The position numbers and the translations under genes were made by a program. Positions 2,611-64,000 of a stretch of DNA of 64,000 bases are shown here, in pieces. Under the pieces are notes generated by a model that made no database searches, was not told where the DNA came from, and saw only the letters and a list, made by a program, of their open reading frames with translations. The DNA is from a virus (Duplodnaviria; Heunggongvirae; Uroviricota; Caudoviricetes): positions 1-64,000 of the IMG/VR virus record IMGVR_UViG_3300045049_000056; one strand, written 5' to 3'. Position 1 is the first letter of the stretch; each line of letters begins with the position of its first letter.

Positions 2611-3282
2611 TTACGTGATGGTTTGCAGCAGTTTAGCAAGCTTCAGGGCCAGTTGCATCGTAGCTTCGTCCACTTGCTCTTGCGTCACACCCGGACCCGG
2701 CACAACAGGTTGCATGAGGGTTGGCGATTCAGCAGCCGTCTTGCTCAGTTCGTCAAGGTAGCGCTTCATTGCGGCCTCGGAGCGCTTGTTCGTCTTCTTT
2801 TCATACTTGCGTTTGCCGGTAGTAGCTTCTTTCTCAGCAGCCGAACGTTTGATCGTAGCACCGTGAGGCTTGTCAGCAGAAGCTTTCTGTTCGTTCTGTG
2901 CAGGCTTCTTCGTTTCTTGGTCATGCAGGTCTTGCGCAAGCTGTTGAAGAGTTTCAGGCTTGTCCTGCTTGTCTTCATCTTTCTGAACAAGCACAAGATT
3001 GGCATCGTTCAGCTTGCGTGGAGTCTTGACAGACTTCGGGAAGCGCTGACGAACCAACACATCATGTTCAGGAATATTCGCATGCTTGGCATAAGCTTGT
3101 GCCAGCTTCATAGCCTGCGCGGGATCGAGATGTTCAGTGTGCATGTAAAAATCGTAGCCCACTTCGATGTCCTTGCCGTCCATGAAGGCTTTCAGACGAC
3201 CATTACCAGTTGCTTTGCTGTCCACGTCGAAGATAACAGGCGTGTTGGTCAGCGGGTAGATACGTGCGATAACCTGTTTCAT
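2611..3282 (-). CDS. hypothetical protein (223 aa) with Lys-rich central segment
   Basis: GGAG RBS before ATG at 3282. N-terminal ~100-aa domain, then a K/E/A-rich low-complexity centre. Confidence 0.6.
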   Translation of the reverse strand: MKQVIARIYPLTNTPVIFDVDSKATGNGRLKAFMDGKDIEVGYDFYMHTEHLDPAQAMKLAQAYAKHANIPEHDVLVRQRFPKSVKTPRKLNDANLVLVQKDEDKQDKPETLQQLAQDLHDQETKKPAQNEQKASADKPHGATIKRSAAEKEATTGKRKYEKKTNKRSEAAMKRYLDELSKTAAESPTLMQPVVPGPGVTQEQVDEATMQLALKLAKLLQTIT

Positions 3283-3472
3283 AGTGATGCTCCTATATAG
3301 TGTTTGATTTCGTTAGATATGTTTGACAACTTCGACAGTGCTGCATCTCTTGCTTGCCTTCGCTGTGTTGCTGTCGATGTGGTCACTTTATCGCGTTCTA
3401 AACCACACGTCAACAAAAATTTTCATGAATCAGACAATTCCTACTATCTTTCTGTTCTGAATCATGGTAGGC

Positions 3473-3484
3473 GTGAATTTTCAC
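3473..3484. repeat. perfect 12-bp palindrome GTGAATTTTCAC
   Basis: Read directly in the noncoding island. Confidence 0.6.
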
Positions 3485-3488
3485 CCAC

Positions 3489-3510
3489 CTACTGTGCATA
3501 TAGACAGTAG
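3489..3510. repeat. inverted repeat CTACTGT-N8-ACAGTAG
   Basis: 7-bp arms read directly. Confidence 0.6.
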
Positions 3511-3666
3511 TTCAATTGACGTTCAGATACATATGTCAGACGACTCTTACAACGCAGCGTGAGAATCTTTCAAATCTCACCAATATTTGCTGTACAGACT
3601 GAAAATATCGGCGTATCTTGAACACATTGTCACTGTAACGAGATTGTAATTCTTACGCTTTCTCTC

Positions 3667-3683
3667 TTATGTGCGGCACATAA
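3667..3683. repeat. perfect 17-bp palindrome TTATGTGCGGCACATAA, with TTATGTGA half-site repeated ~20 nt downstream
   Basis: 8-bp arms around a single central nt. Candidate operator or origin element. Confidence 0.6.
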
Positions 3684-3989
3684 CAGATCATTGTTATGTG
3701 AGCCCTATCAAACCTACTAGGTAGAGCACACAAAGATAGGCGTAGGATGGAATGTGGGTGAATAGTGTCGCCAAGCTTACAAACCCTCTGAATTGAGGGT
3801 AAGGGGAAGTATTGCCTGAAAGATGCAGCCTAAGAGGTAGCAGGGGAGAGCCATGCCCAAATTTGACGGACGAGGATTCCGAAGGGCGAAGCTTTGCCTG
3901 AACGGCTGGGGAAGGAGATGTAGAGGGGTGGTGCGCTAAAACGCACTTTTCAGAAGGCGTAATCTGGAAGAGTGCAGTAAGATGCACAA

Positions 3990-4033
3990 AACTGGGAAAA
4001 TGGAAGACACCCCTCGTTGATCCCAAGGGGTGC
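3990..4033 (-). terminator. putative intrinsic terminator after gene 4063..4734
   Basis: Minus RNA CACCCC-N13-GGGGUG hairpin followed by UCUUCCAUUUUCC. Confidence 0.4.
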
Positions 4034-4062
4034 ATGATTCTGGCTCGCTGACGAGTTTTTAC

Positions 4063-4734
4063 TTATGAAATCGGTCCAAAATCCAAATTGATTTCCTTGT
4101 GCCACTCATCAAACATTTCTACAGCACGCTTTGCGCTATCAAAAATGTCTTGCAAATCTTCGCGCAAGTCTTTGTGACCACGCTGACCTCCCGCAAGAGA
4201 TTTCTTCGTAAGATGTTGCAAGCACGGATCAGTGACGTTGAACGCTCGCAGCACATCATAAACGTCTACCCACACACCCGGCTTAATTTCGCGGTGGTAC
4301 TTGTTTTTAGCAAGCTTTTCCTCTTCTGGATCAGGCATGTACGTCTGGAAAATTGCAGTCTGCATTTCGTCACGTAGCTTCTGCACCTCCGCCATGTGGT
4401 CTACAGATTCATCTTTGACGATTTCAAAACGATTTTTTGCCCACGTCATCGTAACTTCCTTTAACACAAAGTCAGCACCTTCATACTCACCAACCGCAGT
4501 GTAAACGTTACCGTTGCGAAGAAATCCATCGGAACCTTCATCATCGACGCATCGCACGTTAAACGGATACTTAGGTTGATCTTCTACGACTTCAAACCTG
4601 CCTACTCGGTATTGGGAGTCGTTGCCCATATCATTAGTTATTTCATAAAAGTCGCCCCAGCTATCTAACACATCATATGTTTTACCGACTGTGATATTAC
4701 AGCAACTCTCAGCGTTTACACATTTAACTTTCAT
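4063..4734 (-). CDS. DUF550-like protein (dATP/dGTP diphosphohydrolase N-terminal family-like), 223 aa
   Basis: C-terminal segment VDVYDVLRAFNVTDPCLQHLTKKSLAGGQRGHKDLREDL resembles the prophage DUF550 signature. This is recalled from memory, not searched. Confidence 0.5.
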   Translation of the reverse strand: MKVKCVNAESCCNITVGKTYDVLDSWGDFYEITNDMGNDSQYRVGRFEVVEDQPKYPFNVRCVDDEGSDGFLRNGNVYTAVGEYEGADFVLKEVTMTWAKNRFEIVKDESVDHMAEVQKLRDEMQTAIFQTYMPDPEEEKLAKNKYHREIKPGVWVDVYDVLRAFNVTDPCLQHLTKKSLAGGQRGHKDLREDLQDIFDSAKRAVEMFDEWHKEINLDFGPIS

Positions 4735-4763: not shown

Positions 4764-4793
4764 AGAATACCATCAGCCACCTCTACCTGTCAA
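4764..4793 (-). promoter_or_regulatory. leftward early promoter (TTGACA-N18-TATTCT)
   Basis: Minus strand -35 at 4793-4788 and -10 at 4769-4764, ~30 nt upstream of gene 4063..4734. Confidence 0.45.
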
Positions 4794-4828
4794 GCCCTGC
4801 ACACATAAGAATTGGTAAGAAAATTGTG

Positions 4829-4857
4829 TTGACACGGATGAAGGATGTGTGTAGTAT
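4829..4857 (+). promoter_or_regulatory. rightward early promoter, class A (TTGACACGGA-N-TAGTAT)
   Basis: TTGACA 4829-4834, 17-nt spacer, TAGTAT 4852-4857, ~30 nt before gene 4890. Confidence 0.6.
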
Positions 4858-35642: not shown

Positions 35643-35644
35643 GA

Positions 35645-35926
35645 TTACTCCCTTTGCTCAATCATCTTGTTAAGACGCTCATCGATACGATCTAGTCGGG
35701 CGTCAAGCTTCGTACCATAAGCTTCAAAAGATTTGTTAATGTCTTTGATAGCCTCTTTCAGTTCCGTACTAGAGGCGTACGTCTCCGCAACGTGAACACG
35801 GTATTGCGCAAGATCGTTTTCCACCTTCTCAGCCTTCTTCTTCGTCTCTGTCAAATTAGCCCACAACACGGCGCACAAAGCCCCTAACAGGGCTTGCACT
35901 GGCCCCAGCAGTAAGTTAAAATCCAT
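35645..35926 (-). CDS. i-spanin-like or class III holin-like protein (N-terminal TM + coiled coil, 94 aa)
   Basis: ATG at 35924-35926 (MDFNLLLGPVQALLGALCAVLW...) then coiled coil. The track ORF 35645..36073 has a 5' extension overlapping the upstream gene. Confidence 0.5.
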   Translation of the reverse strand: MDFNLLLGPVQALLGALCAVLWANLTETKKKAEKVENDLAQYRVHVAETYASSTELKEAIKDINKSFEAYGTKLDARLDRIDERLNKMIEQRE

Positions 35927-35927
35927 A

Positions 35928-61629: not shown

Positions 61630-62991
61630 TTATACTGTGGGGATTGGGGAAGGTTTAGAAGTGACGGGGATGGAGAAGGACGGAAGGGTGTTATTTTTCA
61701 TAACTGCTTTCGCTGCTGTTCCGGTTGCATCGAACATGTCGTCCTTTTGATTCCTATTACCGTCAATGTAGTCTTCTAGCTCGTTGAACCACATTTCGTT
61801 CCAATCACCTTTAACCACTCGTACCCATCCAGCTTCCGCGAGGGAAAGGAAAGGTTGCATCCTTGCCAACTTACCTGTGTGGCCACTGACCGTCTCAGAG
61901 CGAACATCAACACCCTTCTCAACTAAAGTTTTTACGAAGAATGCTGCGGCCTGCGCCCCAGAAGCGCCGGGGTCTTTAGGGATTGTCACTGGAACTTTTG
62001 TTCCAAATTCGTACAAATCCTTTTTAGAGCACTCTGCAATAGCTTCTAGAACCCCGTGCGTTAGCTGACGGTATCGCTCTACGTGCTCAACATAATAGAA
62101 ACCATCCACACCTTTAGATATGCGAACAGAAGCGGTCCAGTCAGGATTAGGGTTGCTTTCAGACTTAAGAGTGCTTGCCAAGTCCATGCCACGATGTCTG
62201 GAATGTACTCGTGCAGGGACAGCATCAACAATCTCACACCAGTCACGCTTGAAGTAGCCCGAAGACTCTTCTTTAGCAAACCAAGAGCCAAGCAACAGAC
62301 GTTCACGCTCAACACGTTTAAGGTTCTCAAGACGAGCAACGTAGCCCGGATTGAGCACTTTCATGCGGGGATTGTCCTTGATCGTTGCACTGATAAAGGT
62401 GTAGGATTGAGGACGTACGCCGGGGTATTGTTCGATGAGTTCTTCTTTGGTGTCAGCAAACACCATCGTGCCGTTGTAGGAAGCGTAATAACGCTCAACG
62501 CCAGAGCGTTCAGGGATTGGAATGCCTGTTTCTTGATCCAGATACCAACTCACAAAAGGCATCAAGTGGCTGTCACGACGTGGGTTACAGGTTGCAATCA
62601 GTTGATGCGGACCTTTTGCCTGAGAACGAATACGAGATTCAAGATATCGAATCTGGATGTCTGTGTGGTTCTGTGCTTCGTCAAATACAACAAGGGAGAA
62701 CTGACCACCATCATAGTTGGTGATGTCACGGTCTGCACCACAAACCTTAAACTGCACTTGCGCGCCGCTTGGGAACGTGGCAGTCATCTGAGGGTGCGTT
62801 TTAAACTGCGCACCAAACTGACGCCACATCTTCTCGGCTTCTTGGTAAAGACCGCCTGCTTGAGATAGCTGCGTGGAAGTTTCGCGGATAAACACCGCAC
62901 GGAAATTTGGATCGTCCTTGTACTTAAGGACTTTGAGTAATGCCTGATGGCTCTTACCGCATCCCGCTCCCTTTGTGTTCGGACAATCTCG
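61630..62991 (-). CDS. terminase large subunit, 3' exon (5' exon beyond window end)
   Basis: The track ORF (GTG 62895) continues open upstream through Walker A NTKGAGCGKS to an in-frame UAG at 62992-62994 only 7 codons before it. No start codon lies between. Walker B LVVFDEAQ. A nuclease domain is present. Confidence 0.75.
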   Translation of the reverse strand, partial: RDCPNTKGAGCGKSHQALLKVLKYKDDPNFRAVFIRETSTQLSQAGGLYQEAEKMWRQFGAQFKTHPQMTATFPSGAQVQFKVCGADRDITNYDGGQFSLVVFDEAQNHTDIQIRYLESRIRSQAKGPHQLIATCNPRRDSHLMPFVSWYLDQETGIPIPERSGVERYYASYNGTMVFADTKEELIEQYPGVRPQSYTFISATIKDNPRMKVLNPGYVARLENLKRVERERLLLGSWFAKEESSGYFKRDWCEIVDAVPARVHSRHRGMDLASTLKSESNPNPDWTASVRISKGVDGFYYVEHVERYRQLTHGVLEAIAECSKKDLYEFGTKVPVTIPKDPGASGAQAAAFFVKTLVEKGVDVRSETVSGHTGKLARMQPFLSLAEAGWVRVVKGDWNEMWFNELEDYIDGNRNQKDDMFDATGTAAKAVMKNNTLPSFSIPVTSKPSPIPTV

Positions 62992-64000
62992 CTAGTTATT
63001 GTCCCGCTTATCGCAGCACTACATCGCTGTAGTGTTCAGACTATATCTTCATCCTTTCGGAGTCTCCCGTTTCGGATCGCTTGATCCTACGCTTCTCAGC
63101 TAGTCGTTGCACCTTCCCACATGGGCTTGGCTCAGGATTGTCTCAGTGAGAGTTCCCCTGAATTAGAGAGATTTTTATCGGAGGCAGAGTTGTTTACCAC
63201 CGAAGATCACATAATCGCTTGTGCAATCTAGAAACCGCTTGTGTGTCGGGCTGTCAGGCCCGAGCACCACTTTATTTTTCTTAGTCATTTACTCCTCTAT
63301 CATGTTATCGGCAATACCGTGGTGTTCTCCGTATTCAACTCCCAACCTCTTTAACTCTTCAAGTTTGCTATTTCTCCACTCTTGAGCAAGGGCGGTTGCC
63401 TCTTCTAAGCTTCTCGTACCGAAGCCCCACGATTTACTAATCCGCTTCTTACTGATAGGGTCATTGTATCTGGCGATTACCCTGTTACCCTTGCTTTTGT
63501 CGTACCTAACAATAATACCATTGATACCTGATGTATTATTCTTCTGCAAGGAATGATTTCGTGCCTGTTGTTCATCAGTTTCCCAACGAATATTGCCCGG
63601 CTTATAACCTTCTTTATTATCAATTCTTCCCACAGACCATTTTCCAGTGGGTTTGGGGCCAATCTCGTTATAGAATGCGAGAAAATCGTCCTCAAACTCT
63701 TTGCAAACTGTAATGCCACGGCTCGTGTAATGTTCGTAATCGGGATGATTTGGATTAGTGCAACGAGAAAGCATATTTGCGTAGTGGCGATATTCAACTG
63801 ACCCACTCATACCGTGCGTTGTAAATTTCTTAGACATCTCTTCGTTCTTTAAACACCCGCACGAACGATGTTTTCCAGACCTCAAATCATACGATCTAGA
63901 CTCTGTAGTATTTCCACAGGAACACTGACAAACCCACAACACTACATTTTTATAATTTTTGTAGTGTGAAGTTGCGGTAAGTCGTCCAAAAGTCACACCC
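62992..64000 (-). mobile_element. group I self-splicing intron (3' part) in the terminase gene, carrying an HNH homing endonuclease ORF
   Basis: Minus RNA carries R-like UGCAACGACUAG (63111-63101) and S-like AAGAUAUAGUCUG (63049-63039) core elements, candidate P/Q-like segments, a P9-like hairpin CACUAC-AGCGAU-GUAGUG, and a terminal G (of UAG) at the exon junction. Confidence 0.65.
63289..63996 (-). CDS. intron-encoded HNH (HNH_3) + AP2-domain homing endonuclease (N-terminus may extend past window)
   Basis: GKWSVGRIDNKEGYKPGNIRWETDEQQARN is an HNH_3 signature. N-terminal Cys cluster CQCSCG...CGC. GINGIIVRYDKSKGNRVIARYN is AP2-like. The track start is GTG at the window edge. Confidence 0.75.
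   Translation of the reverse strand: MTFGRLTATSHYKNYKNVVLWVCQCSCGNTTESRSYDLRSGKHRSCGCLKNEEMSKKFTTHGMSGSVEYRHYANMLSRCTNPNHPDYEHYTSRGITVCKEFEDDFLAFYNEIGPKPTGKWSVGRIDNKEGYKPGNIRWETDEQQARNHSLQKNNTSGINGIIVRYDKSKGNRVIARYNDPISKKRISKSWGFGTRSLEEATALAQEWRNSKLEELKRLGVEYGEHHGIADNMIEE

Follow-up and report, generated by a model that had tools for sequence, protein, structure and literature searches.

A probable control region and a probable structured RNA gene in the noncoding island beside gene pB of an uncultivated phage

What does a phage keep in 780 bases that hold no conserved open reading frame (ORF)? This question is raised by IMG/VR record IMGVR_UViG_3300045049_000056, a virus of the class Caudoviricetes, of which positions 1 to 64,000 were analyzed (the window). 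Within this window, positions 3283-4062 form a gap between two minus-strand genes, here termed pB (2611..3282) and pA (4063..4734). An earlier note, made from the letters alone, described the gap as one noncoding island rich in palindromes and stem-loops. It named a replication origin, an operator cluster and a structured RNA as candidates, and suggested a scan against Rfam and a covariation analysis. We favor the reading that the island combines a control region with divergent promoters in its left half and a gene for a plus-strand structured RNA of about 325 nucleotides (nt) in its right half. That a structured RNA gene lies on the plus strand we hold with fairly good confidence.

Conservation and folding of the right half

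Recurrence in related phages, on which the earlier note had made its view depend, was found. In five IMG/VR contigs with pB homologs of 72-77% identity, the gap at this position measures 765-800 nt. This set was enlarged by a pB alignment search, a DNA-pattern scan and pB homologs from a large protein collection to about 20 distinct related islands. All lie beside pB (homologs 40-78% identical) and comprise 720-840 nt without a conserved ORF, and the distant relatives (pB 40-49% identical) retain such a stretch upstream of pB as well. Like the gap itself, most motifs of the island recur across these contigs, and it is this conservation, not the bare presence of motifs, that lifts the island above chance. 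In one lineage (loci L144 and L146; such numbers are given where loci need to be told apart) an extra gene is inserted between the RNA part and pB. Nearly all matches of a 14-mer scan of IMG/VR were due to chance; nhmmer recovered two partial true copies (L014 and L041).

Alignment with MAFFT followed by RNAalifold delivered a poor consensus fold, since sequence alignment fails for the hairpin arms. A covariance model, R1, was built from six relatives by entering six helices (P3, P3b and P4 to P7) into a MAFFT-aligned subgroup, and all loci were then searched with it. R1 found every seed and nine non-seed members (E 3e-9 to 8e-4), the window at 3783-3905 among them, and all matches had the strand and position expected. 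With the filters off, L142 was placed correctly (E 9e-5); for the four most distant islands, the best match or one close to it lay at the right place without reaching significance.

The covariation analysis supports these helices. Standard pairs fill 88.9% of the paired cells, compared with 76.5% after shuffling (0 of 500 shuffles reached the observed value) and 40-54% in slid controls. On both sides, 15 of the 30 pairs have changed, against 8.6 in shuffled and 3-7 in slid controls, while the covariation score amounts to 0.398 versus 0.20 and at most 0.105, respectively. Compensatory changes exceed the controls in an alignment that was fitted to the model structure, and they are carried by P3, P4 and P6. 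The arms of P3 read, for example, CCCTC/GAGGG, CCGTG/CACGG, CTCAC/GTGGG, ACCCG/CGGGT or TAGCCC/GGGCTA. Those of P4 include ACCTGT/ACGGGT, ACAGC/GCTGT, CTACGCT/AGCGTGG, CCGCTA/TAGTGG, CCACTG/CAGTGG, CCACG/CGTGG and AACGC/GCGTT, and those of P6 CGGA/TCCG, CGGCC/GGCTG, CGGCT/AGCTG, ACGGCC/GGTTGT, GCAGCC/GGTTGC, GCAACC/GGTTGC, CCTGT/ACAGG and GCAGGC/GCCTGC. Mapped by hand in 17-19 sequences, P3, P4 and P6 occur with 13, 16 and 14 different arm pairs, respectively, and nearly all positions still pair.

The same cells reveal the strand. They comprise 294 Watson-Crick pairs, 66 G-U pairs and 4 A-C combinations. Since G-U pairs would be mismatches on the opposite strand, the RNA lies on the plus strand. 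The plus-strand excess of G and purines matches the sense-strand bias of genes elsewhere in the genome. From 3700 to 4000 the plus strand holds 12 GGG against 3 CCC and 64% purines, while the window mean is 51% (standard deviation 5%). Thus the purine skew pointed out by the earlier note is real, but it does not set the island apart, as coding sequence near 18.4 and 21.4 kb reaches 64-65%.

Downstream of its pyrimidine-rich 5' segment, the RNA consists of hairpins in series, connected by conserved linkers rich in purines. One plan recurs three to four times: a variable hairpin is followed by two or three purines and GGGS (together RRGGGS), a loop of 7-8 nt and SYCY, which yields a short G-rich helix. 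The units are P3 with P3b (3784-3817), P4 with P5 (3824-3858) and P6 with P7 (3867-3898), while P8 represents an extended G-rich helix. This plan of repeated units is indicated by a direct repeat, D1 (GGGGAAGTATTGCCTGAA / GGCGAAGCTTTGCCTGAA), whose copies at 3803-3820 and 3885-3902 are 82 nt apart, and by model R1, which initially aligned two L142 hairpins to other helices of the model. After P7, L142 has GGAGGGCGGGTGGG (about 1820-1860, locus minus strand), which could form a G-quadruplex; most relatives carry weaker clusters of G-runs such as GGAGGGATGGG there.

No conserved pairing partner was found for the 5' pyrimidine segment; its pairing with downstream purine tracts, checked by eye, is not conserved. 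The perfect palindrome TTATGTGCGGCACATAA described by the earlier note is present at 3667-3683 with 8-bp arms and one central base, and its repeated half-site has a third copy, GTTATGTG, at 3693-3700. The three TTATGTG-type half-sites at 3667-3700 can thereby form mutually exclusive hairpins (3667-3683 or 3677-3700). Since this arrangement occurs only in this phage and L011, it is not a feature of the family. A long-range pairing of 3444-3488 with 3725-3772 (repeats I1 and I3) was rejected because its z value is about 0 in 14 relatives and it is thus not conserved.

The RNA strand carries its own predicted promoter with a 17-nt spacer. The strict pattern T[GT]TACA-N17-TAnnnT occurs in 13 of 18 islands; the spacing is exactly 17 nt and the spacer sequences differ. 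Variants are TTGTGC-17-TATATT in L004 and GTGACA-17-TAACCT in L150. A conserved, correctly spaced promoter on the RNA strand is sequence evidence for an independent RNA gene. At the other end, the P8 hairpin with its TTTT is likely an intrinsic terminator, from which the length of about 325 nt follows. P8-type arms covary in relatives (GTGCG/CGCAC, CACGTT/AACGTG, TACGTTT/AAACGTG), and 8 of 18 islands, that of the window among them, have a hairpin with a U-run here. Read-through may extend the RNA to about 4061, where a hairpin next to the pA stop codon could possibly serve as a second stop where the U-run of P8 is missing. For the right half, the structured RNA candidate of the earlier note is therefore supported by covariation, by G-U pairs specific to one strand, by a conserved promoter of its own and, in roughly half of the members, by a terminator.

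Table 1. Features of the island and its borders (positions in the window)
Feature	Position	Strand	Remarks
Shine-Dalgarno sequence of pB, AGGAG (CTCCT on plus)	3290-3294	-	8 nt before the pB start codon; invariant alignment block
5' stem-loop of the pB messenger RNA (mRNA)	3332-3377	-	plus-strand arms TCGACAG/CTGTCGA; inverted repeat I2; conserved in relatives
pB promoter, sigma70-type, TTGACG-17-TAAAGT	3385-3413	-	promoter scan; predicted start ~3378
Inverted repeat GTGAA-TT-TTCAC (GTGAATTTTCAC), candidate protein-binding site	3473-3484		in conserved block A.C.TG.TA.G.GTGA...T.CAC
Candidate LexA-type SOS box TACTGT-GCATATAG-ACAGTA	3489-3510		CTGT-N8-ACAG palindrome; TACTGTGCATATAGACAGTA at 3490-3509
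Inverted repeat GTGAGA-N10-TCTCAC	3559-3580		just upstream of the RNA promoter; relatives have AATTCTCAC..GTGAGAATT; read from alignment
RNA promoter, -35 TGTACA (3591-3596), -10 TATCTT (3614-3619)	3591-3619	+	17-nt spacer; predicted start ~3626
Predicted structured RNA, ~325 nt	3626-3950	+	both ends placed by promoter, terminator and conservation
Pyrimidine-rich 5' segment TGTAATTCTTACGC...CTTATGTGCGG	3644-3676	+	sequence conserved in alignments
Hairpin P0, CACATAAC-AGATCATT-GTTATGTG	3677-3700	+	inverted repeats I4 and I6; relatives other than L011 have different hairpins
Hairpin P1, CCTA-TCAAACCTAC-TAGG	3704-3721	+	CCTATC/GATAGG in relatives
Single-stranded motif GGCGTAGGATG	3739-3749	+	GTAnnATG across the family
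Core domain	3783-3905	+	match to model R1; cmsearch 33.9 bits, E 1.3e-7
Helix P3	3784-3799	+
Helix P3b	3803-3817	+
Helix P4	3824-3842	+
Helix P5	3843-3858	+
Core linker AAATTTG	3859-3865	+
Helix P6	3867-3881	+
Helix P7	3885-3898	+
Hairpin P8, GTGCG-CTAAAA-CGCAC, then TTTT	3931-3950	+	helix 3931-3946; likely intrinsic terminator
Terminator-like hairpin of pA, CACCCC..GGGGTG	4007-4033	-	conserved loop TTGGGATCAACGA (minus), then T-rich run on minus; terminator scan
Hairpin GGCTCG-CTGA-CGAGTT, then TTTTT	4042-4061	+	abuts the pA stop codon; relatives: other hairpins, then TTTTT

Control elements of the left half and the border with pA

The left half (3283-3625) differs in kind. Its conservation suggests that the operator cluster considered by the earlier note is located here, comprising two divergent promoters, a leader hairpin of pB, a LexA-type box and GTGA..TCAC repeats. 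The geometry of the pB promoter, TTGAC-N16-18-TAnnnT, is found in 17 of 18 islands. Directly after its predicted start, positions 3377-3371 pair with 3338-3332. Many relatives have CCGTCGA opposite TCGACAG, which gives A-C on the plus but G-U on the minus strand, and L150 shows the compensatory pair TCGACAA/TTGTCGA. Consequently, this hairpin forms in the minus-strand mRNA. Stem-loops at the 5' end can protect mRNAs, and the leader hairpin probably protects or stabilizes the pB message in this way.

Between the two promoters lie the inverted repeats. The GTGAATTTTCAC site, taken for a perfect palindrome by the earlier note, in fact consists of 5-bp arms that flank TT; GTGA-N4-TCAC or a one-base variant thereof occurs in 14 of 18 islands. 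If a factor binds at 3473-3484, the repeat at 3559-3580 may offer it a second site. The inverted repeat CTACTGT-N8-ACAGTAG is present at 3489-3510 as described. It contains the CTGT-N8-ACAG core with an AT-rich spacer that is typical of LexA SOS boxes, and TACTGT-N8-ACAGTA matches the LexA-box consensus of Escherichia coli at 17 of 20 positions. The core occupies this position in 11 of 18 islands, and the most distant islands lack it. Since the bare core occurs once in the 64-kb window while 1.3 copies are expected by chance, the weight of the box comes from its flanks and its conservation. Judged by sequence, the box is a candidate site, not an operator with known target, and together with the GTGA..TCAC repeats it looks like a set of sites for host LexA and another regulator.

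At the opposite border, the island turned out not to be one unit. All three hairpins listed in the earlier note exist (CCCTC-TGAATT-GAGGG at 3784-3799, the P8 hairpin with TTTT, and CACCCC-N13-GGGGTG at 4008-4032). However, the last of them does not belong with the others. It recurs in relatives 3-4 kb away behind a paralog of pA, accompanied by the sequence that follows it and by the final codons of the pA-type gene. It is therefore a 3' module of the pA gene family and not part of the RNA, and the last 60 nt or so of the island belong to the 3' end of pA. The module consists of CCTCGTTGATCCCAAGG, the hairpin and a T-run, with a conserved loop sequence and differing stems. Copies are located at L003 6909-7039, L103 3618-3701, L004 8068-8158, L005 7829-7957, L001 6842-6893 and L011 6432-6502, while a second copy is absent from this window.

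Alternative explanations and known RNA families

If the right half is transcribed on the plus strand, the product might still serve another end. In a transcript-primed origin, the G-rich plus RNA would stay on its C-rich template as an R-loop, the G clusters of the displaced strand would stabilize it, and it would prime the Pol I-type polymerase of the phage, for which ColE1 RNA II and the promoter-dependent origins of T4 and T7 are models. Such an origin would account for a conserved promoter followed by about 300 nt in which the non-template strand is strongly enriched in G and purines (12 GGG against 3 CCC), for the conserved G-run clusters after P7 and for a location about 1 kb from the switch of gene orientation and GC skew, in a phage that encodes both a Pol I-type polymerase and a primase-helicase. 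Covariation is compatible with it too, as ColE1 RNA II is also folded. However, no iterons, initiator sites or tandem repeats were found in the island, where only two degenerate direct-repeat pairs occur, and no marked AT-rich unwinding element adjoins the G-rich part. GC skew merely tracks gene orientation along the genome and does not single out the island, a terminator-like hairpin ends the RNA in half of the members, the repeats of hairpin and G-rich helix are not needed for an R-loop, and no promoter of an antisense regulator stands out. We consider such an origin, one form of the replication origin named in the earlier note, possible but improbable. Little credence is given to a function of the opposite strand, in which a long untranslated tail of pA, C-rich and poor in G, would load Rho and block read-through to the pB promoter, the plus RNA being a by-product. 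The minus-sense composition of 3700-4000 (33% C, 18% G, C/G 1.85 over 300 nt), the position between the pA terminator hairpin and the pB promoter and the orientation shared with the operon suit such an insulator. Yet Rho loading sites need no conserved hairpins, while the helices covary and their 66 G-U pairs would be C-A mismatches in a minus RNA; moreover, the conserved plus promoter with its fixed 17-nt spacing would have no role, and pA already possesses an intrinsic terminator. Rho may still load on the C-rich minus strand as a side effect.

Two further readings do without a functional RNA. The whole island could act purely as DNA, its palindromes and hairpins being protein sites or cruciforms. 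This fits the left half, where two promoters enclose a LexA-type box and inverted repeats whose sequence is conserved, and CCTATCAGAA..TAGG and AAATTTG are conserved as sequence and not as pairs. In the right half, by contrast, the arms change freely while pairing is kept (13-16 variants per helix), which is the opposite of a protein-binding palindrome, and G-U without an A-C counterpart points to a single strand of one polarity. For the island as a whole we therefore regard this explanation as very improbable. An unrecognized or decaying gene would be hardly tenable. The 113-amino-acid minus-strand ORF (3694..4035) of the earlier note does exist; it has an ATG start, begins 28 nt after pA and lies on the operon strand. 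Most relatives have minus-strand stretches of 55-100 codons without a stop, and gene callers place short genes here in some contigs. Such stretches are, however, expected from the composition of a pyrimidine-rich strand. The ORF product gave a single tblastn match of 40 amino acids, over the conserved pA-tail hairpin, and had no match in PHROG or Pfam. In relatives the ORFs are broken up, and neither frame nor length nor start is constant. The 28-amino-acid plus-strand ORF that the earlier note thought possible is not conserved either, its ATG being absent in relatives.

A control region combined with a structured RNA gene thus remains our preferred interpretation. Nevertheless, several points weigh against it. 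The RNA promoter is weak compared to the consensus (8 of 12 matches) and falls just below the threshold of the promoter scan, and about half of the members have no terminator or one without U-run. With model R1, the matches of the four most distant islands do not reach significance (E 0.2-8); these islands rest on nhmmer and reading by eye. The alignment used for counting pairs was fitted to the model structure and the sequences are related, both of which inflate the shuffle test. P3b, P5 and P7 show one-sided changes or weak pairing (74-94% of cells): P3b and P5 vary between G-C and G-U only, and P7 is weak with 74% paired. Folding of single sequences resulted in z -2.8 on both strands and favors neither. 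The LexA-type box is located about 80 bp upstream of the -35 element of both predicted promoters, overlaps neither and so cannot block either directly. A protein partner is indicated neither by GGA motifs in loops nor by family searches with pB. Finally, we infer the production, exact ends, abundance and role of the RNA from sequence.

Does the RNA belong to a known family? The Rfam scan suggested by the earlier note matched none. Among the 4227 models of Rfam 15, the only match in the window at gathering score is a group I intron at 63017-63234. On the island itself, matches with E up to 10 stayed at chance level (11-17 bits against gathering scores of 38-75), and none was obtained on ten related loci. 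ARAGORN found no genes for transfer RNA (tRNA) or transfer-messenger RNA in the window, and a literature search revealed nothing on a structured RNA of the island.

Comparison with described systems yields partial likeness. With stand-alone RNAs such as 6S, CsrB and phage small RNAs, the island RNA shares that it is intergenic, runs against its neighbors from a conserved promoter of its own, ends in many members with a hairpin and U-run, and contains no ORF. It lacks, however, a catalogued match in sequence or structure and is larger than typical base-pairing small RNAs. CsrB/RsmZ sponges share the length of a few hundred nt, the many hairpins and the repeated purine-rich motifs that suggest binding of several protein copies. 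In contrast, the conserved motif of the island is RRGGGS on the 5' side of a short helix, and there is no Rfam match to Csr or Rsm. A sponge of this type was rejected because GGA, present in 0 of 19 P3, 4 of 18 P4 and 8 of 17 P6 loops, is not conserved; a GTAGGATG motif appears as GTAACATG, GTAGTATG or GTAATATG in relatives. A ToxI-like type III antitoxin was rejected as well. Such RNAs consist of tandem direct repeats of about 34-36 nt beside the gene of a toxin endoribonuclease, whereas Tandem Repeats Finder detected nothing here, the island has only two degenerate two-copy repeats, and the flanking proteins comprise no such family.

ColE1 RNA II resembles the island RNA as a promoter-driven, folded transcript of several hundred nt from a noncoding control region, G-rich against a C-rich template. 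The island RNA, however, belongs to a phage and not a plasmid, has a terminator-like end, and neither an antisense partner like RNA I nor an RNase H site or origin features were identified in the island. Like the large ornate RNAs, namely GOLLD and ROOL of phages and prophages and the HEARO/omega RNAs, the island RNA is long, conserved and built of many helices, and it lies in phage DNA. It is much smaller than GOLLD or ROOL, has no Rfam match, and neither tRNAs nor IscB/TnpB genes were seen beside the island. One might speculate that the self-complementary AAATTT linker allows self-association. LexA-controlled phage switches have SOS boxes before antirepressor or lysis-control genes, and the near-consensus TACTGT-N8-ACAGTA in a phage control region (11 of 18 islands) is reminiscent of them. 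In contrast, the box found here overlaps neither predicted promoter and the phage looks lytic.

Genome setting and meaning for the phage lineage

The window encodes a Pol I-type DNA polymerase, a primase-helicase, thymidylate synthase, ribonucleotide reductase, portal and terminase. With its polymerase, primase-helicase and ribonucleotide reductase, and no integrase among the large genes checked, the phage looks lytic from its gene content. By polymerase, its nearest cultured relatives are phiEcoM-GJ1-like phages (53% identity). GenBank phages comprise neither a DNA match to the island nor a pB homolog. Genes are oriented leftward to about 4.7 kb, rightward to 33 kb and leftward again. Sigma70-like promoters stand back to back at 4764-4857 (minus 4793-4764, plus 4829-4857), where orientation and GC skew switch sign, about 1 kb from the island. 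GC content over the island ranges from 37 to 56%.

Elsewhere in the window, the group I intron (Rfam RF00028, 85.7 bits, minus strand) lies between the ORFs 61630..62895 and 63289..63996. Since the former matches the terminase large subunit, a self-splicing intron seems to divide the terminase gene. Positions 35643-35927, 285 nt without an ORF of at least 45 amino acids in a crude ORF map (not a gene call), may be a further noncoding spacer in the leftward late block. On this map, the view of the earlier note that the island is the only long noncoding stretch is not confirmed.

Gene pB adjoins the island in all islands found and is transcribed opposite to the RNA. In its product, a confidently predicted small beta barrel at the N-terminus (residues 1-85) is followed by a long linker rich in Lys and Glu and by helices conserved at the C-terminus. 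Structural matches are generic SH3-like only, and no Pfam family and no recognizable RNA-binding family were found for pB. A weak similarity to ribosomal protein bS21 (E 0.32) was rejected, as profile comparison gave a probability of 0.3%. A functional link between pB and the RNA is conceivable. Downstream of pB the region is variable: in two relatives, pB overlaps at its 3' end with an HNH/I-HmuI-like endonuclease gene (L142 3189-4301 and L143 1228-2340), and in another it is followed by an Rnl1-type RNA ligase gene (L150 3315-4358).

Searches beyond the phage lineage gave no clue to the host, as no copy was found there among the matches listed. A metagenome protein scan returned nothing. In bacterial and archaeal genomes at least 120 matches occurred, all due to chance among those listed and without nhmmer support. 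A metagenome DNA-pattern scan pointed to two GC-rich Pseudomonas-like contigs, which look unrelated to the island: a palindrome ACTATCAGAACTG(A/T)TAGG (L139 about 2185-2230, L140 about 1750-1798) resembles the P1 region but is located upstream of Rhs/YD-repeat-like genes, and the rest of the RNA is absent.

How might the locus work? In the scenario we propose, the sigma70-type minus promoter (3413-3385) would start the pB mRNA, whose first bases would fold into the leader hairpin (3377-3332), while the plus promoter would fire in the opposite direction from the same control region. The RNA would be transcribed early by host RNA polymerase, antisense to its neighbors, and stop at the P8 hairpin and its UUUU. 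Pairing is kept in the variable hairpins while their sequence is free to change; they may serve as spacers, and one protein of the host or phage could attach to every G-rich unit, with one copy on each. Such an alternation of G-rich units and variable hairpins agrees best with an RNA to which several copies of one protein bind, and it might act in trans as a multi-site decoy or scaffold. This mechanism is our best guess, put forward tentatively, and we consider it rather unlikely in this specific form. In its boldest version, which is possible but doubtful, the RNA would represent a new class of modular phage RNA that sequesters several copies of a host protein early and is tied to the SOS response via the LexA-type box, or else the primer or R-loop of a new origin type. 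The sequestered protein could then be a global regulator that binds RNA, a factor associated with ribosomes or part of a defence system.

To our knowledge, phages have yielded few folded RNAs of several hundred nt so far, and a number of RNAs characterized in recent years act in the conflict of phages with their hosts. The RNA of the island is a good, testable candidate for such a molecule, of a family absent from Rfam 15. Its anatomy is unusually clear, with an own promoter, covarying helices and repeated units, and it stands constantly beside the conserved gene pB and near an apparent SOS box in an otherwise lytic-looking phage. Model R1 can be used to mine further members from metagenomes. 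If the RNA indeed acts as protein decoy or origin primer, it would reveal a new mechanism of early takeover in a phage lineage without cultured representative.

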